From: Spirochaetia bacterium
GTDB lineage: Bacteria; Spirochaetota; Spirochaetia; WTKD01; G963693115
Assembly: GCA_965226055.1 (NCBI GenBank)
Contig: CBDDCA010000003.1
Span: 19,954-83,953 of the forward strand
Length of the DNA: 64,000 nt
Direction: 5' to 3'
Below the pieces are notes generated by a model. It was not told where the DNA came from and ran no database searches. It saw nothing but the letters and a program-made list of their open reading frames with translations. Shown piece after piece: positions 21,562 to 38,146 of the stretch. The position numbers and the translations under genes are program-made. Within the stretch, counting starts at the first letter, position 1. Every line of letters begins with the position of its first letter.

Positions 21562-21603
21562 ATGTATACCTTTGGTAGCACTCAATTCAGATATTTTATG
21601 TAA
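21562..21603 (+). promoter_or_regulatory. Conserved 13-codon upstream ORF (MYTFGSTQFRYFM*), copy 1
   Basis: ATG...TAA frame conserved in three copies of the family's 5' leader module. Confidence 0.3.
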
Positions 21604-21661
21604 TTAGTACTTAAAATTGAGGATAGCAGGCTATTTTTTAAAAAAAATAGGTGTTCTGCTA

Positions 21662-21690
21662 TTGCGGTTTTTTTTTTTTTATTGTATAAT
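21662..21690 (+). promoter_or_regulatory. Putative sigma70-type promoter TTGCGG-N17-TATAAT with T13 homopolymer spacer
   Basis: -35-like hexamer at 21662-21667, T13 at 21668-21680, -10 TATAAT at 21685-21690. It lies 53 nt upstream of the SD+ATG at 21743. Confidence 0.45.
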
Positions 21691-21742: not shown

Positions 21743-21915
21743 ATGAAAAAAAATCGTATATGGTTTGTTATTTTATGTTTTCAGCGATGTTTTTTAATGC
21801 TACCGCTTTTAAGCAAGATTTAGAAGCATGGGGGAAACACATAGGCAAAAAAAGAGTATTTAAGGCAAATATGTTTTATGGGAGTGGAGTAAAAACACCA
21901 CCAACATGGCATTAA
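21743..21915 (+). pseudogene. Deletion remnant of a DUF285 (BspA-like) lipoprotein gene
   Basis: SD+ATG and the signal-peptide-like start MKKNRIWFVILCF match [11 protein letters not shown] of the 29379 gene. The 3' part, in another frame, encodes ...FFNATAFKQDLEAWGKHIG...GSGVKTPPTWH, matching the C-terminus of the 29379 gene. An A8 tract sits at 21746-21753. Confidence 0.6.
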
Positions 21916-21983: not shown

Positions 21984-24900
21984 ATGAAATTATTGAATAT
22001 ATCATATATATTTTTTATCGTTTTTGTGTTTTCACTTTTCACTTGTGAAAATGACAATGTAGGAAGCGGAGGAAGTAACAACGCTATTGATTTAAGTAGT
22101 GTGGCATCTCCCCCGCTAGATGTAACGAATATTACTAACAGTATTGTGAATGGTAATATTGTGTTAAAGTGGCAAGTTCCAGCCCTTACTACTAATCTTA
22201 AAAGGAAAGATGGCAAAACACTCACAAAGGCAGATATATCTTACAAAGTGTATCGAGTAGTAAAGGGAGCAAAGAGCCGAACAATAGCCCAGATTAAAAC
22301 AGTGGATAAAAAACCGATAACAGTAGCAAAGGGAACAACAAGTACAACTATAAGTAATCTTACTGGAAATACAACATACGAGATAGTAGTGCAGGCAGTA
22401 AATTCTACAGATACCACAAAAGTCTCTACAGGAGTGAGAGCAGAAGTTACTACTTTATCCTCTGCAACTGCTCCCGCAGAAGTAAGCACTATTACTGCAG
22501 GCAGTACAACGGCTAGCAGTACAGTTATATCATGGACAGCCCCAACGCTTGATACTAGCCACAAGAAAGCAGACGGCACAGCACTGACAAAGGCAGATGT
22601 GTCTTACAAAGTGTATCGAGTAGCAAAGGGAAGCGATGAGCGAACAGTAGCACAAATAAAATCAGCAGACACAAGCCCGCTAGCAGTAGCAAAGGGAACA
22701 ACAAGTACAACTATAAGTAACCTTACAGGCAGTACAACATACGAGATAGTAGTGCAGGCAGTCAATTCTACTGATGCCACAAAAGCCTCTATAGGCAAGA
22801 GAATAGAAGTTACTACTACTGTTATAATAAATCAAGCCACCGCACCCGCAGAGGCAAGCACTATTACTGCAGGCAGTACAACAGCTAGCAGTACAGTTAT
22901 ATCATGGACAGCTCCAACGCTTGATACTAGCCACAAGAAAGCAGACGGCACAGCACTGATAAAGGCAGATGTATCTTACAAAGTGTATCGAGTAGCAAAA
23001 GGAAGCGATGAGCGAACAGTGGCACAGATTAAGACAGCAGATACAAGCCCGCTAGCAGTAGCAAAGGGAACAACAAGTACAACTATAAGTAACCTTACAG
23101 GGAATACAACATACGAGATAGTAGTGCAGGCAGTAAATTCTACTGATACCACAAAAGCCTCTATAGGCAAGAGAATAGAAGTTACTACCACGAACCCTGC
23201 AACTGCCCCCGCAGAAGTAAGTGCTATTACTGCAGGCAGTACAACGGCTAGCAGTACAACGCTATCATGGACAGCCCCCACGCTTGATACTAGTCACAAG
23301 AAGGCAGACGGCACAGCACTGACAAAGGCAGATGTGTCTTACAAAGTGTATCGAGTAGCAAAAGGAAGCGATGAGCGAACAGTAGCACAGATTAAGACAG
23401 CAGACACAAGCCCGCTAGCAGTAACAAAGGGAACTATAAGCAAAACTATAAATAACCTTACAGGCAGTACAACATACGAGATAGTAGTGCAGGCAGTCAA
23501 TTCTACCGATATCACAAAAGCCTCTACAGGCAAGAGAATAGAAGTTACTACTCTAAACCCCGCAAATGCCCCAACAGAAGTAAGCACTATTACTGCAAGC
23601 AGTACAACAGCTAGCAGTACAGTTATATCATGGACAGCTCCAACGCTTACTACTAGCCATAAGAAAGCGGACGGGGGAAGGCTTACAACGGCAGATGTAT
23701 CTTACAAAATATATCGAGTAGCAAAGGGAAGCAAAGCCCGAACAGTAGCAGAGATTAAGAGAGTAGACCCGACTCCACTAAAAGTAACAAAGGGAACAAC
23801 CCGTATAACTATAACAAACCTTAATTATAATACCGCCTATGAAATAGTAGTACAAGCAGTCAATTCTACTGATACTACAAAAGTCTCTACAGGAATACGA
23901 AAAGAAGTTACTACTAATCGTATACCTAATATAGCCACCGCCCCAACAGAAGTAACCAATATCACCGCAGGCAGTACAACGGCTAGCAGTACAGTTATAT
24001 CATGGACAGCCCCCACCCTAACAAACAGTCACAAGAAAGCAAACGGACAAAATCTTACAACGGCAGATGTATCTTACAAAATATATCGGGTAGCGAAGGG
24101 AAGCGATGAGCGAACAGTAGCCCAGATTAAAACAGCAGACACGACTCCGATCGCAGTAGCAAAGGGAACAACAAGAACAACTATAAGTAACCTTACAGGA
24201 AGTACAATATACGAGATAGTAGTGCAGGCAGTCAATTCTACCGATACCACAAAAGTCTCTACAGGAGTGAGAGCAGAAGTTACTACTCTAAACCCCGCAA
24301 ATGCTCCCGCAGAAGTAAGCAATGTTACTGCTGGAAGTACTACCGATAAAAGAATAGAAGTAACATGGCAAGCACCAACGCTTACTAATGATCACAAGAA
24401 GGCAAACGGAGAAACACTAACAACGGCAGATGTATTTTATAAAGTGTATCGAGTAGCAAAAGGAAGCGATGAGCGAACAGTAGCAGAGATTAAAACAGCA
24501 GACACAAGCCCGTTAGAAGTAGCACGGGGAATAACTACTGTATTTATACCCAACCTTACAGGCAGTACAACATACGAGATAGTAGTGCAGGCAGTCAATT
24601 CTACCGATACCACAAAAGCCTCTACAGGAGTGAGAGCAGAAGTTACTACTACTAACCCTGCAAATGCTCCCGCTGAAGTAAGCAATATTACTGTAGGCAG
24701 TACAACGGCTAGCAGTACAACGCTTTCATGGACAGCCCCCACGCTTGATAATAGCCACAAAAAAGCAAACGGAGAAACACTTACAACGGCAGATGTGTCT
24801 TATAAAGTGTATCGTGTTGCAAAAGGAAAGAATGCCCGAGATGTAGCAGAGATTAAGACAGCGGATAAAAGCCCGTTAGCAGTAGCAAAGGGAACTATAA

Positions 24901-27900
24901 GCAAAACTATAAATAACCTTGCAGGCAGTACAACTTATGAGATAGTAGTACAAGCAGTCAATTCTACTGATACCACAAAAGCCTCTACAGGAGTGAGAGC
25001 AGAAGTTACTACTTTATCCTCTGCAACAGCCCCCGCAGAAGTAAGCAATGTTAGTGCAGGAAGCACAACTGCTAGCAGTACAGTTATATCATGGACAGCC
25101 CCCACGCTTGATAATAGCCATAAAAAAGCAGACGGTACAGCACTGACAAAGGCAGATGTGTCTTACAAAGTGTATCGAGTAGCAAAGGGAAGCGATGAGC
25201 GAACAGTAGCAGAGATTAAGACAGCGGATAAAAGCCCGCTAGCAGTAACAAAAGGAACTATAAGCAAAACTATAAATAACCTTACAGGCAGTACAACATA
25301 CGAGATAGTAGTGCAGGCAGTCAATTCTACCGATACCACAAAAGTCTCTACAGGCAAGAGAATAGAAGTAACAACCTCAAACCCCGCAAATGCCCCCGCA
25401 GAAGTAAGCAATGTTAGTGCAGGAAGCACAACTGCTAGCAGTACAGTTATATCATGGACAGCCCCAACGCTTGATACTAGCCACAAGAAAGCAGATGGCA
25501 CAGCACTGACAAAGGCAGATGTGTCTTACAAAGTGTATCGAGTAGCAAAGGGAAGCGATGAGCGAACAGTAGCAGAGATTAAGACAGCGGATAAAAGCCC
25601 GCTAGCAGTAACAAAAGGAACTATAAGCAAAACTATAAGTAACCTTACAGGCAGTACAACATACGAGATAGTAGTGCAGGCAGTCAATTCCACCGATACC
25701 ACAAAAGTCTCTACAGGAGTGAGAGCAGAAGTTACTACTTTATCCTCTGCAACTGCTCCCGCAGAAGTAAGCAATGTTAGTGCAGGAAGCACAACTGCTA
25801 GCAGTACAGTTATATCATGGACAGCACCAACGCTTGATACTAGCCATAAGAAAGCAGACGGCACAGCACTAACAAAGGCAGATGTGTCTTACAAAGTGTA
25901 TCGAGTAGCAAAAGGAAAGAATGCCCGAGATGTAGCAGAAATTAAGACAGCGGATAAAAGCCCGTTAGCAGTAACAAAGGGAACTATAAGCAAAACTATA
26001 AGTAACCTTACAGGCAGTACAACATACGAGATAGTAGTGCAGGCAGTCAATTCTACCGATACCACAAAAGCCTCTACAGGCAAGAGAATAGAAGTTACTA
26101 CTCTAAACCCCGCAAATGCCCCCGCAGAAGTAAGCAATGTTAGTGCAGGAAGCACAACTGCTAGCAGTACAGTTATATCATGGACAGCCCCCACGCTTGA
26201 TAATAGCCATAAAAAAGCAGACGGTACAGCACTGACAAAGGCAGATGTGTCTTACAAAGTGTATCGAGTAGCAAAGGGAAGCGATGAGCGAACAGTAGCA
26301 GAGATTAAGACAGCGGATAAAAGCCCGCTAGCAGTAACAAAAGGAACTATAAGCAAAACTATAAATAACCTTACAGGCAGTACAACATACGAGATAGTAG
26401 TACAAGCAGTAAATTCTACTGATACCACAAAAGTCTCTACAGGAGTGAGAGCAGAAGTTACTACTTTATCCTCTGCAACTGCTCCCGCAGAAGTAAGCAA
26501 TGTTAGTGCAGGAAGCACAACTGCTAGCAGTACAACAATATCATGGACAGCCCCAACGCTTGATAATAGCCACAAGAAAGCAGACGGCACAGCACTAACA
26601 AAGGCAGATGTGTCTTACAAAGTGTATCGAGTAGCAAAAGGAAAGAATGCCCGAGATGTAGCAGAGATTAAGACAGCAGATAAAAGCCCGTTAGCAGTAA
26701 CAAAAGGAACTATAAGCAAAACTATAAGTAACCTTACAGGCAGTACAACATACGAGATAGTAGTACAGGCAGTCAATTCTACCGATACCACAAAAGCCTC
26801 TACAGGCAAGAGAATAGAAGTTACTACTACCAACCCCGCAAATGCTCCCGCAGAAGTAAGCAATATTACTGCAGGCAATCTTATTGCAGGCACTCCCTAC
26901 AGCACTGGTATTACTATATCATGGACAGCCCCAACGCTTGATAATAGCCACAAGAAAGCAGATGGCACAGCACTGACAACGGCAGATGTATCTTACAAAG
27001 TGTATCGAGTGGCAGAAAGATGGAATAACCCCCGAACAGTAGCACAGATTAAAACAGCAGACACAAGCCCGCTAGAAGTAACACAGAATACAACAAGTAT
27101 AAATATAACTAATCTTGTTTTGTACGAAACATACGAGATAGTAGTGCAGGCAGTCAATTCTACCGATACCACAAAAATCTCTACAGGAATAAAGAAAAAC
27201 ATTACTCTCAATAGTAACGCCACTGATCCCGCAGAAGTAAACAATGTTACAGGAACTCCCGCTGATAAATCTGCAAGAATATCGTGGGAAGCTCCAACAC
27301 TCAAAAGCAGTCACAAAAAATCAGACGGAACACAACTAACAACGGCAGAGGTATCGTATAAGGTATATGCAGCGAGAAGGAAAAGAGATGAGTACGGAGT
27401 TTATTACAAAGAACGCACAGTAGCACAAATTATAGCAGGTGGTCACCCAATTAGTTTACCCGCAGGAACTACAAGTACGAATATTAATACTATTGCAAAA
27501 GATATAGTTTTTATACCTAAAAATAAATACGAGATAGTAGTGCAAGCAGTAAATGTCACCGATACGTCAAAAGTCTCTACAGGAGTAAGAATAGAAATAA
27601 CTACCATTTCTACTAATCACGCCACCGCCCCGCCAGACCCCCGCAGTGTTTTAAGCTATGCAGCAAAGCCATCTAATAGAGCAGTAACAATATCATGGAT
27701 AACTTCAACGCTTACTAATAATCATAAGAAACCAGACGGCACGAAATTAGCGAAAACAGATATAGATTACTATGTATATCATTTAGAAAAGGCCAGCATT
27801 TCTAAAACAGTAGAACAAATTAAAAACAGAAAGCCAATCCCTATACTAGTACTCAATGGAGCTACAAATGTAGTTATTTCTAATCTTAAGCCCAATACTA

Positions 27901-28295
27901 CCTATGAGGTAGTAGTGCAGGCAGTCAACTCTATTGATACAAGAAAAAAATCTACAGGCATACGAATAGAAGTTACTACTTTAGTAACGCTTAATGAATT
28001 AGTATTTAAGGTAAAGGGAAATAAAGTTACTTATGAATGGGTACATTACCCTGAAACTGCAAATATTGAAATAGAACAAACGCCATACGCAACAGGTAAA
28101 TATTCAATAAGTCCCAACCTCACAGCAGACACTGGACTGTCCTTTGATACAAAAACAGGCAGGATATACGGACAACCCACGAAATCGCTTAAAACCTTCA
28201 ATGCTCGTAAATACTACACAGTAAAATTTACTGCAAACGATGGACGAATAGCACGGGGTACAATTCTCTTAAAAGTAACAAGAAATAACTACTAA
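21984..28295 (+). CDS. Giant surface lipoprotein with 16 tandem FN3-like domains and a C-terminal Ig-like (He_PIG-type) domain
   Basis: 2103-aa ORF. AGGAGG SD, signal peptide and lipobox (FSLFTC). The roughly 121-aa units have an FN3-like pattern (...SWTAP...Y.VYRV...L...[11 protein letters not shown]...). The C-terminal SPNLTADTGLSFDTKTGRIYGQP pattern is typical of putative Ig domains. Confidence 0.8.
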   Translation: MKLLNISYIFFIVFVFSLFTCENDNVGSGGSNNAIDLSSVASPPLDVTNITNSIVNGNIVLKWQVPALTTNLKRKDGKTLTKADISYKVYRVVKGAKSRTIAQIKTVDKKPITVAKGTTSTTISNLTGNTTYEIVVQAVNSTDTTKVSTGVRAEVTTLSSATAPAEVSTITAGSTTASSTVISWTAPTLDTSHKKADGTALTKADVSYKVYRVAKGSDERTVAQIKSADTSPLAVAKGTTSTTISNLTGSTTYEIVVQAVNSTDATKASIGKRIEVTTTVIINQATAPAEASTITAGSTTASSTVISWTAPTLDTSHKKADGTALIKADVSYKVYRVAKGSDERTVAQIKTADTSPLAVAKGTTSTTISNLTGNTTYEIVVQAVNSTDTTKASIGKRIEVTTTNPATAPAEVSAITAGSTTASSTTLSWTAPTLDTSHKKADGTALTKADVSYKVYRVAKGSDERTVAQIKTADTSPLAVTKGTISKTINNLTGSTTYEIVVQAVNSTDITKASTGKRIEVTTLNPANAPTEVSTITASSTTASSTVISWTAPTLTTSHKKADGGRLTTADVSYKIYRVAKGSKARTVAEIKRVDPTPLKVTKGTTRITITNLNYNTAYEIVVQAVNSTDTTKVSTGIRKEVTTNRIPNIATAPTEVTNITAGSTTASSTVISWTAPTLTNSHKKANGQNLTTADVSYKIYRVAKGSDERTVAQIKTADTTPIAVAKGTTRTTISNLTGSTIYEIVVQAVNSTDTTKVSTGVRAEVTTLNPANAPAEVSNVTAGSTTDKRIEVTWQAPTLTNDHKKANGETLTTADVFYKVYRVAKGSDERTVAEIKTADTSPLEVARGITTVFIPNLTGSTTYEIVVQAVNSTDTTKASTGVRAEVTTTNPANAPAEVSNITVGSTTASSTTLSWTAPTLDNSHKKANGETLTTADVSYKVYRVAKGKNARDVAEIKTADKSPLAVAKGTISKTINNLAGSTTYEIVVQAVNSTDTTKASTGVRAEVTTLSSATAPAEVSNVSAGSTTASSTVISWTAPTLDNSHKKADGTALTKADVSYKVYRVAKGSDERTVAEIKTADKSPLAVTKGTISKTINNLTGSTTYEIVVQAVNSTDTTKVSTGKRIEVTTSNPANAPAEVSNVSAGSTTASSTVISWTAPTLDTSHKKADGTALTKADVSYKVYRVAKGSDERTVAEIKTADKSPLAVTKGTISKTISNLTGSTTYEIVVQAVNSTDTTKVSTGVRAEVTTLSSATAPAEVSNVSAGSTTASSTVISWTAPTLDTSHKKADGTALTKADVSYKVYRVAKGKNARDVAEIKTADKSPLAVTKGTISKTISNLTGSTTYEIVVQAVNSTDTTKASTGKRIEVTTLNPANAPAEVSNVSAGSTTASSTVISWTAPTLDNSHKKADGTALTKADVSYKVYRVAKGSDERTVAEIKTADKSPLAVTKGTISKTINNLTGSTTYEIVVQAVNSTDTTKVSTGVRAEVTTLSSATAPAEVSNVSAGSTTASSTTISWTAPTLDNSHKKADGTALTKADVSYKVYRVAKGKNARDVAEIKTADKSPLAVTKGTISKTISNLTGSTTYEIVVQAVNSTDTTKASTGKRIEVTTTNPANAPAEVSNITAGNLIAGTPYSTGITISWTAPTLDNSHKKADGTALTTADVSYKVYRVAERWNNPRTVAQIKTADTSPLEVTQNTTSINITNLVLYETYEIVVQAVNSTDTTKISTGIKKNITLNSNATDPAEVNNVTGTPADKSARISWEAPTLKSSHKKSDGTQLTTAEVSYKVYAARRKRDEYGVYYKERTVAQIIAGGHPISLPAGTTSTNINTIAKDIVFIPKNKYEIVVQAVNVTDTSKVSTGVRIEITTISTNHATAPPDPRSVLSYAAKPSNRAVTISWITSTLTNNHKKPDGTKLAKTDIDYYVYHLEKASISKTVEQIKNRKPIPILVLNGATNVVISNLKPNTTYEVVVQAVNSIDTRKKSTGIRIEVTTLVTLNELVFKVKGNKVTYEWVHYPETANIEIEQTPYATGKYSISPNLTADTGLSFDTKTGRIYGQPTKSLKTFNARKYYTVKFTANDGRIARGTILLKVTRNNY
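22095..27985 (+). repeat. Tandem 363-bp coding repeats (16 units)
   Basis: The period is visible in both protein and DNA. The central units (about 24960-26830) share stretches of more than 200 nt of perfect identity, for example 25098-25315 versus 26187-26404. Confidence 0.9.
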
Positions 28296-29089: not shown

Positions 29090-29197
29090 TTACCGAAAGC
29101 AAAAGAGCTAATTTTTATAAAATCGGTAAGTATTTATTGCAGGTACATATAAAATAACTTCTACTAAGCATATTTGAGAAAGGAGTTTTGTTATCTC

Positions 29198-29239
29198 ATG
29201 TATACCTTTGGTAGCACTCAATTCAGATATTTTATGTAA
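29198..29239 (+). promoter_or_regulatory. Conserved 13-codon upstream ORF (MYTFGSTQFRYFM*), copy 2
   Basis: AAAGGAG lies 12 nt upstream of the ATG. Same frame and stop as copies 1 and 3. Confidence 0.3.
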
Positions 29240-29296
29240 TTAGTACTTAAAATTGAGAATAGAAGGCCATCTCTTTAAAAAAACAGGTGTTTTGGT

Positions 29297-29325
29297 ATTG
29301 CGTTTTTTTGTATTTCTTTGTATAT
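29297..29325 (+). promoter_or_regulatory. Putative promoter TTGCGT-N17-TATATT with interrupted T-tract (T7)
   Basis: Homologous position to the T13 and T15 promoters. Here the spacer reads TTTTTTGTATTTCTTTG. Confidence 0.4.
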
Positions 29326-29378
29326 TATATCTATCTTTATTCAAAATTCAAGCGTTAAGTTTGAAAAAGGAGAAAAAT

Positions 29379-31190
29379 ATGAAAACAAATCATATATATT
29401 TTATTATTTTTAGTGTTTTTATTATTTTGATAAGTGCTTGTGAAGCTGAGATTCCGACTATTGATAACAGTAGGAATGATGCTTCCTCTGCGACTGCACC
29501 AGCAGAGGCAAGCAATGTTACAGGAAGCCCAACCAATACAAGTGCAAGTATATCCTGGCAAGCCCCAACGCTTACAAGCAGTCATAAGAAAGCAGACGGA
29601 ACACAGCTGACAAAGGCAGATGTATCTTACAAAGTATACCGAGTAGCAAAAGGAGCAAAGAGCCGAACAATAGCACAGATTAAAGAAGCGGACACGAAAC
29701 CGATTGAAGTAGCAAAGGGAACAACAAGCACAAGTATAACTAATCTTACTAGAAGTACGACCTATGAAATAGTAGTACAAGCAGTCAATGCCACCGACCC
29801 CACAAAAGTCTCTACAGGTATACGAATAGAAGTAACTACACTTGCCACAAATCAAGCAACAGCACCAGCAGACGTCCGTGTTGTTACAGGAAGCCGCTCT
29901 ACTGATACCAGTACATTGATAAGATGGCTACCCCCAACGCTTGATACTAGCCACAAGAAAGCAGACGGCACAGCACTGACAAAGGCAGATGTATCTTACA
30001 AAGTGTATCGAGTAGCAAAGGGAAGTGATGAGCGAACAGTAGCAGAGATTAAGACAGCAGACACAAGCCCGTTAGCAGTAACAAAGGGAACAACAAGTAC
30101 AACTATAAGTAACCTTACAGGAAATACAACATACGAGATAGTAGTACAAGCAGTCAATTCCACTGCCCCCACAAAAGTCTCTACAGGCATACGAATAGAA
30201 ATAACTACCCTTGCCTCTATTAGCATGAGAGCAAAGCAACAAGGAAGCAGCAGTACATTTACTACTTTGTCAGCAACAGCACAAGGAAAAGACGGAACAA
30301 CAGAAATTACTCCTATTGTAATGGAAGTAACGCCCAGTAGTGTAGTAAGCAGTGGTACATTTTCAATCAGCCCCAGCCTAACAGAAAATACAGGCATTTC
30401 TTTCAATACCAGCAACGGCACAATATCAGGGGTAGCGAAATATATACAGAGTGAAACTACTTATACAATAACCTTTACAGCGACAGACCGCAGAACAGCA
30501 CAGACCACTATTGATATTACTGTAGTGGGAAAATATAGCCCGAAAAGTAGAGCCGATTTAATTACACTAATACAGGATATAATGGACACCGATGACAACG
30601 GGAAAATAGATGATATTGACCCCGACTTAAACATTATTGATACAAGTAATATTACAGATATGACCAAATTATTTAGCACGAGAACAAAATTACATGTATT
30701 TAATGGGGATATATCAAAATGGGATGTAAGTAATGTAACTACTATGTTTACCATGTTTGCCAGTAATAAGGTATTTAATGGGGATATATCAAACTGGAAT
30801 GTAAGTAAAGTAACCGATATGGACGGGATGTTTAATAATGCTATAAAGTTTAATGGGGATATATCAAACTGGAAAGTAGGGAAAGTAACGAATATGGACA
30901 GGATGTTTTTTAATGCAACAGCATTTAATGGTGACATATCAAAATGGGATGTAAGCAAAGTAACGGATATGAGCCTTATGTTTCATCAAGCCTCTGCATT
31001 TAATAAGGATATATCAGACTGGAATGTAGAGAGTGTAACCAATATGTTTGGAATGTTTAATCTAGCGACTTCATTTACTAAAGATTTAGAAGCATGGGGG
31101 GAACATATAGGGGATAGTGTAGATATGTCCTTAATGTTTGATGGCAGTGGAGTAAAGACAACGCCTTCATGGTATAAAAGTGGAAATTAA
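29379..31190 (+). CDS. Surface lipoprotein: 2 FN3-like units + Ig-like domain + C-terminal DUF285 (BspA-like) repeats
   Basis: AAGGAG SD plus ATG at 29379 ([21 protein letters not shown] lipobox); the track ORF start 29253 reads through the leader. Five to six repeats of about 25 aa, FNGDISxW(D/N)VSxVTxMxxMF, are typical of DUF285. Confidence 0.8.
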
Positions 31191-31368
31191 AGTATAGTAA
31201 ACTTGTGTAGGGATGAGAAATATAAAATCTTTATTATATTACTAATGCAGATGTTTGTTATTCTTATCTTTTCAATCATCCCTACACTTTAGTAAGTTTA
31301 TATAAGATGAGAAAACTGTTATTACTATTACAAATTGAGCATATTTGAGAAAGGAGTTTTGCTATCTC

Positions 31369-31410
31369 GTGTATACCTTTGGTAAAACTCCATTCAGATA
31401 TTTTATGTAA
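31369..31410 (+). promoter_or_regulatory. Conserved 13-codon upstream ORF (GTG start, (M)YTFGKTPFRYFM*), copy 3
   Basis: Same length, frame and stop as the other copies. Two codons differ, both nonsynonymous. Confidence 0.3.
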
Positions 31411-31467
31411 ATAGCACTTAAAATTGAGAATAAAAGGCTATTTTTTAAGAAAATAGGTGTTTTGCTA

Positions 31468-31498
31468 TTGCGGTTTTTTTTTTTTTTTGTTGTATAAT
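31468..31498 (+). promoter_or_regulatory. Putative promoter TTGCGG-N19-TATAAT with T15 homopolymer spacer
   Basis: -35-like hexamer at 31468-31473, T15 at 31474-31488, -10 TATAAT at 31493-31498. It lies upstream of the SD+ATG at 31550. Confidence 0.45.
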
Positions 31499-31549
31499 AA
31501 TATATCTGCATCTAAAATGCAAGTATTAAGTTTGAAAAAGGAGTAAAAT

Positions 31550-34500
31550 ATGAAAATAAACCATATATATTTTATTGTTTTTAGTGTTTTTATTATTTTG
31601 ATAAGTGCTTGTGAAGCTGATATCTCGACTAGCTCTAGTAGTGGGGGGAGTACACTATCTTCTGCAACTGCACCATTAGAGGTAAGCAATGTTACAGGAA
31701 ATCCTACCGACAGAAGTATTATATTGAAGTGGCAAGCCCCAACGCTTACAAGCAGTCATAAGAAAGCAGACGGAACACAGCTAACAAAGGCAGATGTATC
31801 GCATAAGGTTTTTATAGTAGAAAAAGGATCACAGAGCCGAACAGTAGAGAATATTATAGCTTTAGATAAATCGCCTATTGAGGTAAAAAAAGGAATAGTA
31901 ACAGTAAATATAAATGATCGAAAGCCCAATACCACCTATGAAATAGTAGTACAAGCGGTCAATTCTACCGATACCACAAAAGTCTCTAAAGGAATGAGAG
32001 TAGAAGTGACTACCCTTACCACTGATCACGCAACAGCACCTCCAGAAGCAAGCGATGTTACAGGAAGTCCTATCGATACAAGTGCAAGAATAACATGGCA
32101 AGCCCCAAATCTTACCGATAGCCATAAGAAAGCAGATGGCACAGCACTCACAACGGCAGATGTATCGTACAAAGTGTATCGGGTAGCAAAGGGAAGCGAT
32201 GAGCGAACAGTAGCAGAGATTAAGACAGCAGATAAGACTCCGCTTGAAGTAGCAAAAGGAACGACAAGTATAAATATAACTAACCTTAATAAAAATACTG
32301 CTTATGAAGTAGTAGTACAATCAGTCAATTCCACCGATACCACAAAAGTCTCTACAGGAGTAAGAATAGAAGTAACTACCCTTGCACAGAATCATGCAAC
32401 CGCACCAGCAGATGCAAGCAGTGTTGCAGGAAGCCCAGACAATGACAGTGTAGCGGTATCATGGCAAGCCCCAAATCTTACCGATAGCCATAAGAAAGCA
32501 GACGGCACACAACTCACAACGGCAGATGTATCTTACAAAGTATACCGAGTAGCAAAGGGAAGCGATGAGCGAACAGTAGCAGAGATTAAAACAGCAGACA
32601 CGACACCGATTGAAGTAGCAAAAGGAACAACAAGCACAACTATAAATAATCTTATTGGAAGTACTACCTATGAAATAGTAGTACAAGCAGTCAATTCCAC
32701 CGACTCTACAAAAGCCTCTACAGGCATACGAATAGAAGTAGCTACCACGAACCCCGCCACTGCACCAGCAGACGCCCGCAGTGTTGCAGGAAGCCCAGCC
32801 GATACCAGCGCAAGAATAACATGGCAAGCGCCAGCGCTTACAGGCAGTCATAAAAAAGCAAACGGACAAAGACTCACAGAGGCAGATGTATCTTACAAAG
32901 TATACCGAGTAGTAAAGGGAAACGGTGTCCGAACAGTAGCAGCGATTAAAACAGCAGATAATAACCCGCTAGCAGTAGCAAAGGGAACAACAAGTACAAA
33001 TATAACCAGTCTTACCCCTGCTACCACCTATGAAATAGTGGTACAAGCAGTCAATTCCACCGATACCACAAAAGTCTCTACAGGCAAACGAATAGAAGTA
33101 ACTACCCTTGCAAATAATCACGCAACAGCACCAGCAGACGCAAGCAGTGTTGTAGGAAGCCCAGCCGATGACAGTGTAGGGGTATCATGGCAAGCCCCAG
33201 CCTTTACAAGTAGTCATAAGAAAGCAGACGGAACACAACTCACAAAGGCAGATGTATATTACAAAGTATACCGAGTAGTAAAGGGAGCAAAGAGCAGAAC
33301 AATAGCAGAGATTAAAGAAGCAGACAAGACCCCGATGGAAGTAGCAAAGGGAACAACAAGCACAACTATAACTAATCTTACAGGAAGTACCACCTATGAA
33401 ATAGTAGTACAAGCAGTCAATTCCACCGACTCTACAAAAGCCTCTACAGGCATACGAATAGAAGTAGCTACCACGAACCCCGCCACTGCACCAGCAGACG
33501 CCCGCAGTGTTACCGCAGGAAGCACGACAGCCTCAAGTACAACTTTATCGTGGACAGATCCAACGCTTACTACTAGCCACAAGAAAGCAAATGGACAAAG
33601 ACTCACAACGGCAGATGTATCGTACAAAGTATATCGTGTAGCAAAAGGAAGGAATGCTCGAACAATAGCAGAGATTAAAACAGCAGATGGGACACCGCTA
33701 GCAGTAGCAAAGGGAACAAAAAGCACAACTATAACTAATCTTACAGGAAGTACTACCTATGAAATAGTAGTACAAGCAATCAACTCCACCGATACTACAA
33801 AAGTCTCTACAGGAGTGAGAATAGAAGTGACTACCACGAACCCTGCCACCGCGCCAGCAGATGCAAGCAGTGTTGCAGGAAATCCAACTGATGACAGTGT
33901 AGCGGTATCATGGACAGCCCCAGCTCTTACAAGCAGTCACAAGAAAGCAGATGGAACGAAACTCACAAAGGCAGATGTATCTTACAAAGTATATCGAGTA
34001 GCAAAGAATGGAGCAAACACTCGATCAATAGCACAGATTATAACAGCAGACAAGACCCCGCTTGAAGTAGTAAAAGGAACAACAAGTGCAACTATAACTA
34101 ATCTTACCCCTAGTACCACCTATGAAATAGTAGTACAAGCGATCAATTCTACCGATACCACAAAAACCTCTACAGGAGTAAGAATAGAAGTAACTACCGA
34201 TAACCTTGCCACCGCACCAGCAGAGGCAAGTAGTGTTACAGGAAGCCCAACCGATACTAGTGCAAGAATAACATGGCAAGCTCCAACGCTTACTACTAGC
34301 CATAAGAAAGCAGACGGACAAAGACTCACAACGGCAGATGTATCTTACAAAGTGTATCGAGTAGCAAAAGGAAGCGATGCCCGAACAATAGCAGAGATTA
34401 AAACAGCAGATAAGAACCCGCTAGCAGTAGCAAGGGGAACAACAAGCACAACTATAACCAGTCTTACCCCTAATACCACCTATGAAATAGTAGTACAAGC

Positions 34501-37500
34501 AGTCAATTTTACCGATACTACAAAAGTCTCTACAGGCAAACGAATAGAAGTAACTACCGTTGCACAGAATCATGCAACAGCACCAGCAGACGCAAGCAAT
34601 GTGAGAGGAATCCCAGACGATGACAGTATAGCGGTATCATGGCAAGCCCCAACGCTTACCGATAGCCACAAGAAACCAGACGGAACACAACTAACACAGG
34701 CAGATGTATACTACAAAGTATATCGTGCAGTAAAAGGAGCAAAGAGCCGAACAATAGCAGAGATTAAAACAGCAGATAAGACTCCGATAGCAGTAGCAAA
34801 AGGAATAACAAGTACAACTATAACTAATCTTACAGGAAGTACTACCTATGAAGTAGTGGTACAAGCAGTCAATTTCATCGATACTACAAAAGCCTCTACA
34901 GGCATACGAATAGAAGTAGTCACCACTAACCCCGCCACTGCACCAGCGGACGCAAGCAATGTGAGAGGAAGCTCTACCGATACAAGTGCAAGAATAACAT
35001 GGCAAGCCCCAGCACTTGATACTAGCCACAAAAAAGCAAACGGACAAAGCCTCACCACAGCAGATGTATCGTACAAAGTGTATCGGGTAGCAAAAGGAAA
35101 GAATGCTCGAACTATAGCAGCGATTAAAACAGCAGATAAGAACCCGATAGCAGTAGCAAAAGGAAAAACAAACACAAGTATAACTAATCTTACCCCTATT
35201 ACCACCTATGAAATAGTAGTGCAGGCAGTTAATACAACAGATATAACAAAAGCCTCTACAGGAGTGAGAATAGAAGTGACTACCAAGAACTCAGCAACCG
35301 CACCGTCAGAGGCAAGCAGTATTACAGGAAGCCTAAACGATGATGGGAGTGTAACGGTATCATGGACAGCCCCCACGCTTACAAGCAGTCACAAGAAAGC
35401 AAACGGACAAGCACTCACAAAAGCAGATGTATCGTACAAAGTGTATCGTGTAGAAAGGGGGGGGCGATTCAGAACAGTAGCAGCGATTAAAGCAGCAGAT
35501 CCGAACCCGCTAGCAGTAGGAAAAGGAACAACAAGTATAAATATAACTAATCTTAAGTCTAATGCTACCTATGAAGTAGTAGTGCAAGCAATCAATTCCA
35601 CCGATACCACAAAAGTCTCTACAGGAGTCAAAGAATTTGTATTTGTCACTAATCGTGCCACCGCACCGCCAGACATATCTAGTGTGGTGACAGGTAAAAC
35701 TGATAACAGCATAACACTAAACTGGTCAATTTTGCCTAGAGATAGTCATCAAAAGAGAAACGGACAAAGACTCACAGCGTCAGATATATCTTATAAAGTA
35801 TATCGTGTAGTAAAGGGAGCAAAGAGCCGAACAATAGCAGCGATTAAAGCAGCAGATAGGACCCCGCTAGCAGTAGCAAAGGGAACAACAAGTATAAATA
35901 TAACTAATCTTAATGAAAATACCACCTATGAAATAGTAGTACAAGCAGTCAATTCCACTGATACCACAAAAGTCTCTACAGGAGAAAAAGTAGAACTAAC
36001 TACCACTAATAATGCCACTGCACCGCCAGATGCTCGTAGTGTTACAGGAAGCCCAATCGATGACAGTATAACGGTATCATGGACAGCTCCAGATCTTACA
36101 AGCAGTCACAAAAAAACAGACGGACAAGCACTCACAGCGGCAGATGTATTGTATAAAGTATATCATATAGCAAAAGGAAAGGATGCCCGAACAATAGCAG
36201 AGATTAAAGCAGCAGATAAGAACCCGCTAGCAGTAGCAAAAGGAACAACAAGCACAACTATAACTAATCTTACTGGAAGTACTACCTATGAAATAGTAGT
36301 ACAAGCAGTCAATTCCACCGCTATTGCAAAAGTCTCTACAGGAGTAAGAATAGAAGTAACTACCACTAACTTAGCAACCGCACCAGCAGACGTCCGCGAT
36401 GTTACCGCAGAAAGTCTTATTGATACCAGTGCAACTATATCATGGAAAGATCCTGTTCTTACTAATAGTCACAAGAAATCAGACGGACAAACACTCACAA
36501 CGGCAGATGTATCGTATAAAGTGTATCGTGTGGTAAAGGGAGGCAGTGCCCGAACAATAGCAGCGATTAAAGCAGCAGATAATAACCCGCTAGCAGTAGC
36601 AAAGGGAATAACAAATACAAATATAACTAATCTTACCCATAATACTACCTATGAAGTAGTAGTACAAGCAGTCAATTCCACCGCTATTGCAAAAGTCTCT
36701 ACAGGAGTAAGAGTAGAAGTAACTACCACTAATAATGCCACCGCACCGCCAGATGCTCGCAGTGTTACAGTAGTAAGATCAACTGATGACAGTGTAGAGA
36801 TATCATGGCAAGCCCCAAATCTTACTGCTAGTCACAAGAAAACAAACGGGCAAAGGCTTACAGAGGCAGATGTATCGTACAAAGTATATCGTGTAACAAA
36901 GGGAAAGAATGCCCGATCAATAGCAGCGATTAAAACAGCAGATAATAACCCGATAGCAGTAGCAAAGGGAACAACAAGTACAACTATAACTAATCTTACA
37001 TTTAGTACCACCTATGAAATAGTAGTACAGGCAGTCAATGCAACATATACCACAAAAGTCTCTACAGGAATAAAAACAGAAGTAACTACTGTGTCCTATG
37101 CAACCGAACCAGCAGATGCCCGCAATGTTACCGCAGCAAGTATTACCAATAAAGCTGTAAAGGTATCATGGCAAGTCCCAGATATTACCGATAGTCACAA
37201 GAAACCAGACGGAACACAACTAACACAGGCAGATGTATCGTATAAGGTATATCATGTAGCAAAAAAGGGAACAAAGAAACGAACAGTAGCAGAGATTATA
37301 GCAGCAGATACTAGCCCGATAGAAGAAGCAGCAGTAGCAAAAGGAACGACAAGCACAAATGTAGATATAACTAATCTTACATTTAATACCACCTATGAAA
37401 TAGTAGTACAAGCAATCAATACAACAGATACTACAAAAGTTTCTACAGGGGTAAGAGTAGAAGTAATTGCTAACCCAGCAACAGCTCCCCCAGAGGTAAA

Positions 37501-38146
37501 TAATATTGTAAAAGACCCTACAGATATCAATATAGAACTAGAGTGGACAGCTCCCACGCTTACAAGCAGTCACAAAAAAACAGACGGACAAGCATTAACA
37601 AAGGCAGATCTATCCTACAAAATTTACGCTTTAGAAAAAGGAGCAAGAAGCCGATCAATAGCAGCAATTAAAGCAACAGGTTTTATTCACGAATTACTAA
37701 AAGGATTAACAGTTGCAAATATATCTTTACTTCTTAGTGCTGATAAAGACGTACCCTTGAAGCCTAACACTACCTATGAAATAGTAATACAGGCAGTCAA
37801 TTCCACCGATCCCACAAAAGTCTCTACAGGCAAACGAATAGAAGTAACTACTCTTAGTTCTCTTAATTTAGTTATGAAGAGAGGCAATACTATAGTAACA
37901 AACTTACACATAAAGGTAGATTCTGTTGGTGTTAATATTCGTTCAGTAGTAACACCGAGTGTAAGTGGTATATTTTTTATTACTCCTGATTTAACGCAAA
38001 ATACTGGAATTTTATTTAATACTAATACTGGCGTACTATCGGGGAAAGCAAAAAAACTTGCATCAAAGAAAACATATACAATAGTCTTTACTGCATCAGA
38101 TGGACGATTAGCACGTACTTCTTTTAGTGTTAGTACATTTAGGTAG
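31550..38146 (+). CDS. Giant surface lipoprotein with 17 tandem FN3-like domains and a C-terminal Ig-like (He_PIG-type) domain
   Basis: 2198-aa ORF with signal peptide and lipobox (ILISAC). Seventeen units of about 121 aa, more diverged from one another than in the 21984 gene. The C-terminal motif is TPDLTQNTGILFNTNTGVLSG. Confidence 0.8.
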   Translation: MKINHIYFIVFSVFIILISACEADISTSSSSGGSTLSSATAPLEVSNVTGNPTDRSIILKWQAPTLTSSHKKADGTQLTKADVSHKVFIVEKGSQSRTVENIIALDKSPIEVKKGIVTVNINDRKPNTTYEIVVQAVNSTDTTKVSKGMRVEVTTLTTDHATAPPEASDVTGSPIDTSARITWQAPNLTDSHKKADGTALTTADVSYKVYRVAKGSDERTVAEIKTADKTPLEVAKGTTSINITNLNKNTAYEVVVQSVNSTDTTKVSTGVRIEVTTLAQNHATAPADASSVAGSPDNDSVAVSWQAPNLTDSHKKADGTQLTTADVSYKVYRVAKGSDERTVAEIKTADTTPIEVAKGTTSTTINNLIGSTTYEIVVQAVNSTDSTKASTGIRIEVATTNPATAPADARSVAGSPADTSARITWQAPALTGSHKKANGQRLTEADVSYKVYRVVKGNGVRTVAAIKTADNNPLAVAKGTTSTNITSLTPATTYEIVVQAVNSTDTTKVSTGKRIEVTTLANNHATAPADASSVVGSPADDSVGVSWQAPAFTSSHKKADGTQLTKADVYYKVYRVVKGAKSRTIAEIKEADKTPMEVAKGTTSTTITNLTGSTTYEIVVQAVNSTDSTKASTGIRIEVATTNPATAPADARSVTAGSTTASSTTLSWTDPTLTTSHKKANGQRLTTADVSYKVYRVAKGRNARTIAEIKTADGTPLAVAKGTKSTTITNLTGSTTYEIVVQAINSTDTTKVSTGVRIEVTTTNPATAPADASSVAGNPTDDSVAVSWTAPALTSSHKKADGTKLTKADVSYKVYRVAKNGANTRSIAQIITADKTPLEVVKGTTSATITNLTPSTTYEIVVQAINSTDTTKTSTGVRIEVTTDNLATAPAEASSVTGSPTDTSARITWQAPTLTTSHKKADGQRLTTADVSYKVYRVAKGSDARTIAEIKTADKNPLAVARGTTSTTITSLTPNTTYEIVVQAVNFTDTTKVSTGKRIEVTTVAQNHATAPADASNVRGIPDDDSIAVSWQAPTLTDSHKKPDGTQLTQADVYYKVYRAVKGAKSRTIAEIKTADKTPIAVAKGITSTTITNLTGSTTYEVVVQAVNFIDTTKASTGIRIEVVTTNPATAPADASNVRGSSTDTSARITWQAPALDTSHKKANGQSLTTADVSYKVYRVAKGKNARTIAAIKTADKNPIAVAKGKTNTSITNLTPITTYEIVVQAVNTTDITKASTGVRIEVTTKNSATAPSEASSITGSLNDDGSVTVSWTAPTLTSSHKKANGQALTKADVSYKVYRVERGGRFRTVAAIKAADPNPLAVGKGTTSINITNLKSNATYEVVVQAINSTDTTKVSTGVKEFVFVTNRATAPPDISSVVTGKTDNSITLNWSILPRDSHQKRNGQRLTASDISYKVYRVVKGAKSRTIAAIKAADRTPLAVAKGTTSINITNLNENTTYEIVVQAVNSTDTTKVSTGEKVELTTTNNATAPPDARSVTGSPIDDSITVSWTAPDLTSSHKKTDGQALTAADVLYKVYHIAKGKDARTIAEIKAADKNPLAVAKGTTSTTITNLTGSTTYEIVVQAVNSTAIAKVSTGVRIEVTTTNLATAPADVRDVTAESLIDTSATISWKDPVLTNSHKKSDGQTLTTADVSYKVYRVVKGGSARTIAAIKAADNNPLAVAKGITNTNITNLTHNTTYEVVVQAVNSTAIAKVSTGVRVEVTTTNNATAPPDARSVTVVRSTDDSVEISWQAPNLTASHKKTNGQRLTEADVSYKVYRVTKGKNARSIAAIKTADNNPIAVAKGTTSTTITNLTFSTTYEIVVQAVNATYTTKVSTGIKTEVTTVSYATEPADARNVTAASITNKAVKVSWQVPDITDSHKKPDGTQLTQADVSYKVYHVAKKGTKKRTVAEIIAADTSPIEEAAVAKGTTSTNVDITNLTFNTTYEIVVQAINTTDTTKVSTGVRVEVIANPATAPPEVNNIVKDPTDINIELEWTAPTLTSSHKKTDGQALTKADLSYKIYALEKGARSRSIAAIKATGFIHELLKGLTVANISLLLSADKDVPLKPNTTYEIVIQAVNSTDPTKVSTGKRIEVTTLSSLNLVMKRGNTIVTNLHIKVDSVGVNIRSVVTPSVSGIFFITPDLTQNTGILFNTNTGVLSGKAKKLASKKTYTIVFTASDGRLARTSFSVSTFR
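31658..37855 (+). repeat. Tandem ~363-bp coding repeats (17 units)
   Basis: The recurring ATAP(A/P)(D/E)...SW(Q/T)AP...YKVYRV...[14 protein letters not shown]...EVTT pattern has a period of about 121 aa. Confidence 0.85.

Follow-up and report, generated by a model that had tools for sequence, protein, structure and literature searches.

The window, that is, the whole stretch of DNA analysed (64,000 nucleotides), comes from the genome of a Spirochaetia bacterium (G000; 2.25 Mb, 6 contigs, 34.9% GC). It includes two giant lipoprotein genes, another lipoprotein gene between them, and three putative promoters of one family. The features discussed below are the following, in window coordinates.

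21662..21690, + strand: sibling promoter TTGCGG-T13ATTG-TATAAT, 17-nt spacer (TTGCGG 21662-21667; T13 21668-80; ATTG; TATAAT 21685-90)
21744..21915, + strand: collapsed gene behind the 21662 promoter, a signal-peptide stub (21744-21823) plus a DUF285 C-terminal remnant to 21915
21984-28295, + strand: giant gene 1, starting 300 nt downstream of the 21662 promoter and preceded by an SD of its own
29298..29326, + strand: third family promoter TTGCGT-ttttttgtatttctttg-TATATT, interrupted T-run, spacer fixed at 17 nt
29379-31190, + strand: FN3 and DUF285 lipoprotein gene between both giants, behind the 29298 promoter
31198..31298, + strand: stem-loop GTGTAGGGATGA...TCATCCCTACAC, located after the DUF285 gene (stop at 31190) and before the promoter cassette
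31369..31410, + strand: 13-codon ORF-like block, (M)YTFGKTPFRYFM and stop, with AAAGGAG; other copies at 29198-29239 and 21562-21603
31439..31457, strand not applicable: AT palindrome CTATTTTTT-AAG-AAAATAG, near-perfect (CTATTTTTT-AAAAAATAG); further copies at 21633-21652 and 29267-29286
31468..31473, + strand: -35-like hexamer TTGCGG, of which TTG alone fits the consensus (3/6)
31474..31488, + strand: uninterrupted poly-T (T15) by direct reading, the hypermutable part of the spacer
31489..31492, + strand: GTTG, the remaining spacer (19 nt in total)
31493..31498, + strand: -10 hexamer TATAAT, with the TAnnnT pattern across 17 copies
31499..31549, + strand: predicted 5' leader, with SD AAGGAG at 31538-31543 and a putative start near 31505
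31550..38146, + strand: the gene that the 31468 promoter would control, a 2198-aa lipoprotein with ~16 FN3 domains and the signal ...ILISAC

An earlier note on this DNA had described TTGCGG, T15 and TATAAT at 31468-31498 with a 19-nt spacer, and direct reading and a script re-count both gave exactly these positions and this length. The same script counted 17 nt at 21662, in agreement with the claim that the same hexamers flank a tract 2 nt shorter (T13) at that site. The core promoter is separated from the ATG (31550) of the giant gene by 52 nt. TTGCGG followed by T10 was found at only two places in the 2.25-Mb genome, the 31468 and 21662 sites, and the ~200 bp around them, from a CTATCTC[A/G]TGTATACC block as far as the start codon, are 85% identical. 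The proteins encoded at 31550 and 21984 share 61% identity, and a Pfam comparison identified 14-16 FN3 stretches in each, with FN3-type domains only. The 31550 product is a predicted surface lipoprotein, its exposure being part of the prediction.

The surroundings of the three promoters differ. The proposal that both giant genes stand behind homologous promoters needs amending at 21662, where the remnant at 21744-21915 lies between the promoter and the gene at 21984. The sister species, which is the sole congener in the species collection (G001, OZ244590.1, 'MAG: Spirochaetia bacterium', uncultured, 2.36 Mb), has an intact ortholog of this gene, 657 aa long. No terminator-like site was found on the + strand between the 21662 promoter and 21984, which makes read-through into giant gene 1 plausible. 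The decayed gene stands behind a promoter that is apparently in an ON state (17 nt). The description of the 29298-29326 promoter as a third family member holds, including its interrupted tract and its spacer fixed at 17 nt. Upstream of the 31468 promoter, the stem-loop at 31198-31298 folds with -27 kcal/mol (z = -4.9), a value that none of 200 shuffles equalled, and is kept in the sister species. It is probably a terminator or insulator that shields the cassette from the upstream gene, in which case the giant gene at 31550 needs its own promoter.

All three promoters belong to a cassette of ~200 bp that begins with a palindrome, continues with a -35, a T-rich spacer and a -10, and ends with the leader, the SD and a signal peptide of the lipoprotein type. 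Besides 31468 and 21662, matches in G000 consist of a full copy at 29169-29389, three copies on contig C5 and one short fragment, and matches in G001 were found in 15 places. Seventeen copies (6 from G000 and 11 from G001) were aligned using BLAST plus MAFFT. All except one of them precede long lipoprotein frames with the signal MKxNxIYF...ILISAC, the exception being the stub at 21744; the frames are 412-2198 aa long where the fetched DNA includes a stop, and seven of them extend past its end. The -10 columns (T16 A17 T16 A16 A11 T17 over the 17 copies) show the classical TAnnnT signature, the TATTG columns of the -35 region are conserved in 16-17 of the 17 copies, and every copy has kept the leader and the SD. 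The upstream part, above the palindrome or the -35, has been lost in the G001 copies at 947k, 944k, 664k and 1315k and in the G000 copy at C5:92k. These shortened copies keep the TTG/T-rich/TATAAT part and still precede long open lipoprotein frames, which points to the retained part as the place of the promoter. At the level of sequence, the view that the hexamers at 31468 act as a real sigma70-type promoter is supported. So far the cassette family has been seen in this genus and in Logan runs only, and a scan of JGI metagenomes with the cassette pattern produced 12 chance matches and no cassette.

The palindrome at 31439-31457 is centred ~57 nt upstream of the predicted start, and few columns of the cassette are as well conserved (15-17 of the 17 copies per column). 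It (CTATTTTTTAAAAAATAG) is a candidate operator for a common regulator or a candidate UP-like element. Folding of the palindrome together with the T-run as RNA gave no significant structure. Two other promoter types were considered at this site and rejected. An extended -10 (TGnTATAAT) does not fit at 31493 because the G at -13 directly adjoins TATAAT. A sigma54 promoter (GG-N10-GC; TGGCAC-N5-TTGC) does not fit either, since the GG-to-GC distance in AGGTGTTTTGCTATTGC is 8 or 14 nt, not 12; the GG of this sigma54-like sequence is missing in other cassette copies.

Spacer lengths were compared across the family after dividing the promoters into those with interrupted tracts (longest T-run of 8 or less) and those with pure tracts (runs of 13-19 T). 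All six interrupted-tract promoters that could be read unambiguously have a script-computed spacer of 17 nt (G000 29298, C5:431k and C5:92k; G001 1119k, 1125k and 664k); two further interrupted copies are divergent and their spacers are ambiguous. The pure-tract promoters have spacers of 17 (five), 18 (two), 19 (two) and 20 nt (one), counts that include an independent second promoter before a 590-aa DUF285 lipoprotein gene. A Fisher test by hand calculation (17 vs. non-17, interrupted vs. pure) gave a one-sided p of ~0.06, which is suggestive only. The second promoter of this spacer class, TTGCTT-T17GG(19)-TATAAT at C5:621165-621183 (L044 2166-2184), is located 72 nt before the DUF285 gene. 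Its G001 ortholog, TTGCAT-T14ATG-TATAAT, has a 17-nt spacer. The G001 ortholog of the 31468 promoter, TTGCAT-ttttcttttttttattg-TACAAT, is interrupted with a spacer of 17 nt (89% identity over 500 bp), and that of the 21662 promoter, TTGATT-T13AATTA-TATAAT, has 18 nt (92% identity, gene intact).

The preference of the organism as a whole was estimated by counting TTGnnn-N-TATAAT arrangements, with at least 5 of 6 matches to TATAAT, in the stretches of at most 150 nt that precede crudely called ORFs. Dereplicated upstream regions yielded 72 cases with N = 17, 44 with N = 18 and 21 with N = 19 (raw counts 121, 70 and 36), against ~16 in shuffles and 15-30 on the antisense strand across spacers. 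Judged by these counts, the promoters of this organism appear to be E. coli-like, with 17 nt preferred over 18 and 19 nt at background. This agrees with the description of the 19-nt spacer as supra-optimal, and it is the reason why T15 is called the low state. A perfect TTGACA-17-TATAAT also precedes other lipoprotein genes in this genome.

Tract lengths in other populations were taken from Logan contigs of metagenome-like runs with a depth of 2.5-5x, i.e., from contigs rather than raw reads. The contigs compared at 31474 have no other differences from the window over 185-321 nt. The tract is T15 in run X1 (sample S1), T13 in run X2, T14 in run X3 and T14 in run X5, the last three from sample S2; T13-T15 correspond exactly to spacers of 17-19 nt. 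The control tracts were constant. The sibling tract at 21668 is T13 in X1, X2, X5 and X16, the T19 at C5:621165 has the same length in X1, X2 and X5, and the T16 at C4:167442 has the same length in X2, with contigs breaking at the tract in X1. Runs X4 and X6, which have a higher depth, contain a related strain together with many paralogs; the assembly graph fragments at the tract there, and lengths are unassignable to loci. Since the T13, T16 and T19 controls do not change, the variation is peculiar to 31474 and is not an artefact that affects homopolymers in general, on evidence that at 2.5-5x depth is good but not conclusive. These data agree with the earlier note in calling the tract slippage-prone, and they lend no support to its suggestion that the two giant genes are expressed alternately or in a mutually exclusive manner: the tracts are independent, and run X2 has T13 at both loci, hence 17 nt at both, which argues against strict mutual exclusivity.

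The arrangement at 31468-31498 is not a product of chance. Runs of A or T in G000 follow a bimodal length distribution (765 of 8 nt, 98 of 9, 4 of 10, none of 11-12 and 29 of 13-30 nt), and the T15 at 31474-31488 is in its long mode. All but one of the 29 long runs are intergenic; most have the poly-T orientation and precede a lipoprotein gene by ~100 nt. There are also 31 runs of G or C of 11-20 nt. The two species of the genus have 28 and 24 runs of at least 14 T, against 0-3 in each of 24 other Spirochaetia genomes; among the genomes sampled, long homopolymers have expanded in this genus alone. Loss of mismatch repair was considered as the cause of the tracts and rejected, since MutS and MutL are intact in G000; therefore, slippage is not boosted in that way.

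The reading that we favor, with moderate confidence, is that T15 is a slipped-strand switch or rheostat in the promoter spacer of the 31550 gene, caught in its low state in the assembly. In this view, a sigma70-type promoter, TTGCGG-N19-TATAAT, would drive 31550, and the tract would make its spacer prone to slippage. Mispairing of slipped strands in the course of replication would add or remove T's at 31474 and shift the distance between -35 and -10, so that T13 would give 17 nt, T14 18 nt and T15 19 nt. Because RNA polymerase would prefer 17 nt and tolerate 18, T15 would be low or OFF and T13 ON. The outcome would be a heritable, reversible and stochastic amount of one surface lipoprotein, set independently of its paralogs. 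In this mechanism, the start near 31505, the effect of length on transcription and the reversibility of the switch are what we infer from the sequences. A start further upstream keeps a formal place, since ~130 nt upstream of the -35, including the ORF-like block, are also conserved.

A first alternative, which we consider unlikely though deserving of attention, is that the 31474 tract is hypermutable and has no regulatory effect. It would then be a tolerated low-complexity spacer of drifting length, and transcription would be similar from 17 to 19 nt; the promoter might, for instance, depend on the -10 and the AT palindrome, or another start might be used. The weak -35 (3/6) agrees with this alternative: a -10-reliant promoter could respond less to spacing, and the 31468 promoter is missing from the promoter-scan listing because its -35 fits the consensus only in TTG. 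It is also in keeping with the pure-tract promoters found at 17-20 nt without obvious gene decay and with the vpma precedent, in which a T-tract is present without switching (PMC2268961). However, interrupted copies stay at exactly 17 nt, promoters of the organism peak at 17 with 19 nt at background, and the tract at 31474 varies while the T13, T16 and T19 controls are uniform, a pattern that looks like selection on state, not drift.

A second alternative, that the length differences at 31474 are technical (polymerase stutter, low-depth k-mer assembly) and T15 is fixed in the strain, is in our judgment very unlikely. Long homopolymers are error-prone, the depth is only 2.5-5x, and T13, T14 and T14 all come from runs of one sample, S2. 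Against this, the T19, the T16 and the sibling T13 have the same length in every run with spanning contigs, and orthologs and paralogs differ in tract length too. A third alternative, in which transcription starts above the 13-codon ORF and the cassette is a 5' leader or attenuator whose U15 acts in the RNA, e.g., as the U-tract of a terminator, is highly unlikely: although the ORF-like block with its AAAGGAG at 31369-31410 is conserved and the conservation of the cassette reaches well past the core promoter, no hairpin adjoins the T-run (31400-31495 fold, -12.2 kcal/mol, z = +0.31), there is no Rfam match, no promoter-like site lies upstream of the 31369 block on the + strand, copies without the block still precede long open lipoprotein frames, the ORF (consensus MYTFG..F[RK]YF[MT] and stop) is kept in ~9 of 13 copies but disrupted in the others, and conservation of the TAnnnT type is what a -10 box would show. 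An intrinsic terminator or attenuator at the T-run was rejected on the same hairpin and Rfam results.

The mechanism that the spacer-switch reading invokes, slippage within a promoter spacer, is well known and no new mechanism is proposed. Spacer repeats modulate porA, opc and fetA in Neisseria meningitidis and hif in Haemophilus influenzae (reviewed in PMC11868660). There, as proposed here, the number of repeats in the spacer translates into graded ON, intermediate and OFF transcription of surface proteins; unlike here, the repeats are poly-G, poly-C or TA, the organisms belong to other phyla, and single loci are concerned rather than a cassette family. The closest likeness within the spirochetes that we compared is T. 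pallidum tp0126, an OmpW homolog with a poly-G between -35 and -10 that is optimal at 17 nt, according to the account in PMC7864442, which cites PMC4432754 (Giacani et al. 2015). That account places the tp0126 homopolymer in the sigma70 spacer of an envelope or surface protein gene of a spirochete, and the 31468 tract lies in the predicted sigma70 spacer of a gene of this kind. Transcription of tp0126 is described there as best at 17 nt with lengths varying within isolates; in the family of the 31468 promoter, 17 nt is the preferred spacer, and at 31468 itself lengths differ between runs. The tp0126 tract is poly-G in a pathogen of 53% GC and, by the same account, was validated by transcription-start mapping and reporters. 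The 31468 tract is a poly-T (13-16 nt) in an uncultured organism of 35% GC, belongs to a multi-copy cassette of a lipoprotein family, and is known from sequence alone.

Mycoplasmas provide a second set of comparisons. Spacer indels switch vlp in M. hyorhinis (poly-A; Citti & Wise 1995), maa2 in M. arthritidis and vmm in M. mycoides, as described in PMC2268961. The Vlp system and the one described here share a repeat-rich family of surface lipoproteins with a conserved 5' region (promoter, leader and signal peptide), and each vlp gene is described as independently switched by promoter-spacer slippage, as we propose for this family. The proteins are apparently not homologous, those encountered here being FN3/DUF285 giants of 400-2200 aa. 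The present family belongs to a spirochete whose MutS and MutL are intact, and some of its members have interrupted tracts, seemingly locked at 17 nt. The likeness to Vlp is one of system architecture, not of ancestry. A cautionary counter-example is vpma of M. agalactiae, where a T-tract directly upstream of the -10 was shown not to switch and switching is by Xer1 inversion (PMC2268961). Both vpma and 31468 have T-tracts upstream of the -10 in promoters of lipoprotein families; at 31468, length polymorphism was observed.

Other long homopolymers of the genome occupy other positions. About 22 poly-T tracts (T14-T27 in the orientation of the gene) on contigs C2, C5 and C6 are located directly 5' of the -35 of genes of the ~1550-aa and ~2560-aa lipoprotein families. 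Examples of this UP-position class are C5:246055, C5:660788 and C5:123187, with arrangements such as T14-atctata-TTGACA-17-TATAAT. The ~2560-aa genes have poly-G in the 5' part of the coding region, where the printed sequence reaches it. The T16 at C4:167442-167457 (L045 143-158) has a TTGATT...TAAAAT context and lies 51 nt upstream of a gene for a dynamin-family GTPase, a non-lipoprotein. The spacer class consists only of the cassette family, C5:621165 and perhaps C4:167442, and most of the others are in the UP position.

A wider reading, offered tentatively and with more doubt than confidence, is that the 31474 tract might belong to a repeat code, specific to the genus and built in several tiers, by which the cell surface is set; the ~70 long homopolymers of the 2.25-Mb genome would make up this code in three positional classes. 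Its tiers might be spacer poly-T tracts (the cassette family and a DUF285 gene) acting as three-state rheostats of 17, 18 and 19 nt, poly-T above the -35 of the large lipoprotein families, and poly-G in the 5' part of the coding regions of these families. As part of the same tentative reading, point mutations might repeatedly purify an ancestral interrupted 17-nt spacer into a switchable one, such that locked and switchable paralogs coexist.

The spirochete cases that we found described are poly-G tracts in T. pallidum. If confirmed, the present case would add an uncultured Spirochaetia lineage to the organisms with promoter-spacer phase variation. The locus would offer a natural experiment, in which locked promoters, with an interrupted tract and 17 nt, and switchable ones, with a pure tract of T13-T16, are found next to each other and in two sister species. 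If the spacer-switch reading is true, giant FN3/DUF285 lipoproteins would be dialled up or down individually, which bears on how the surface of this organism may vary in its habitat.
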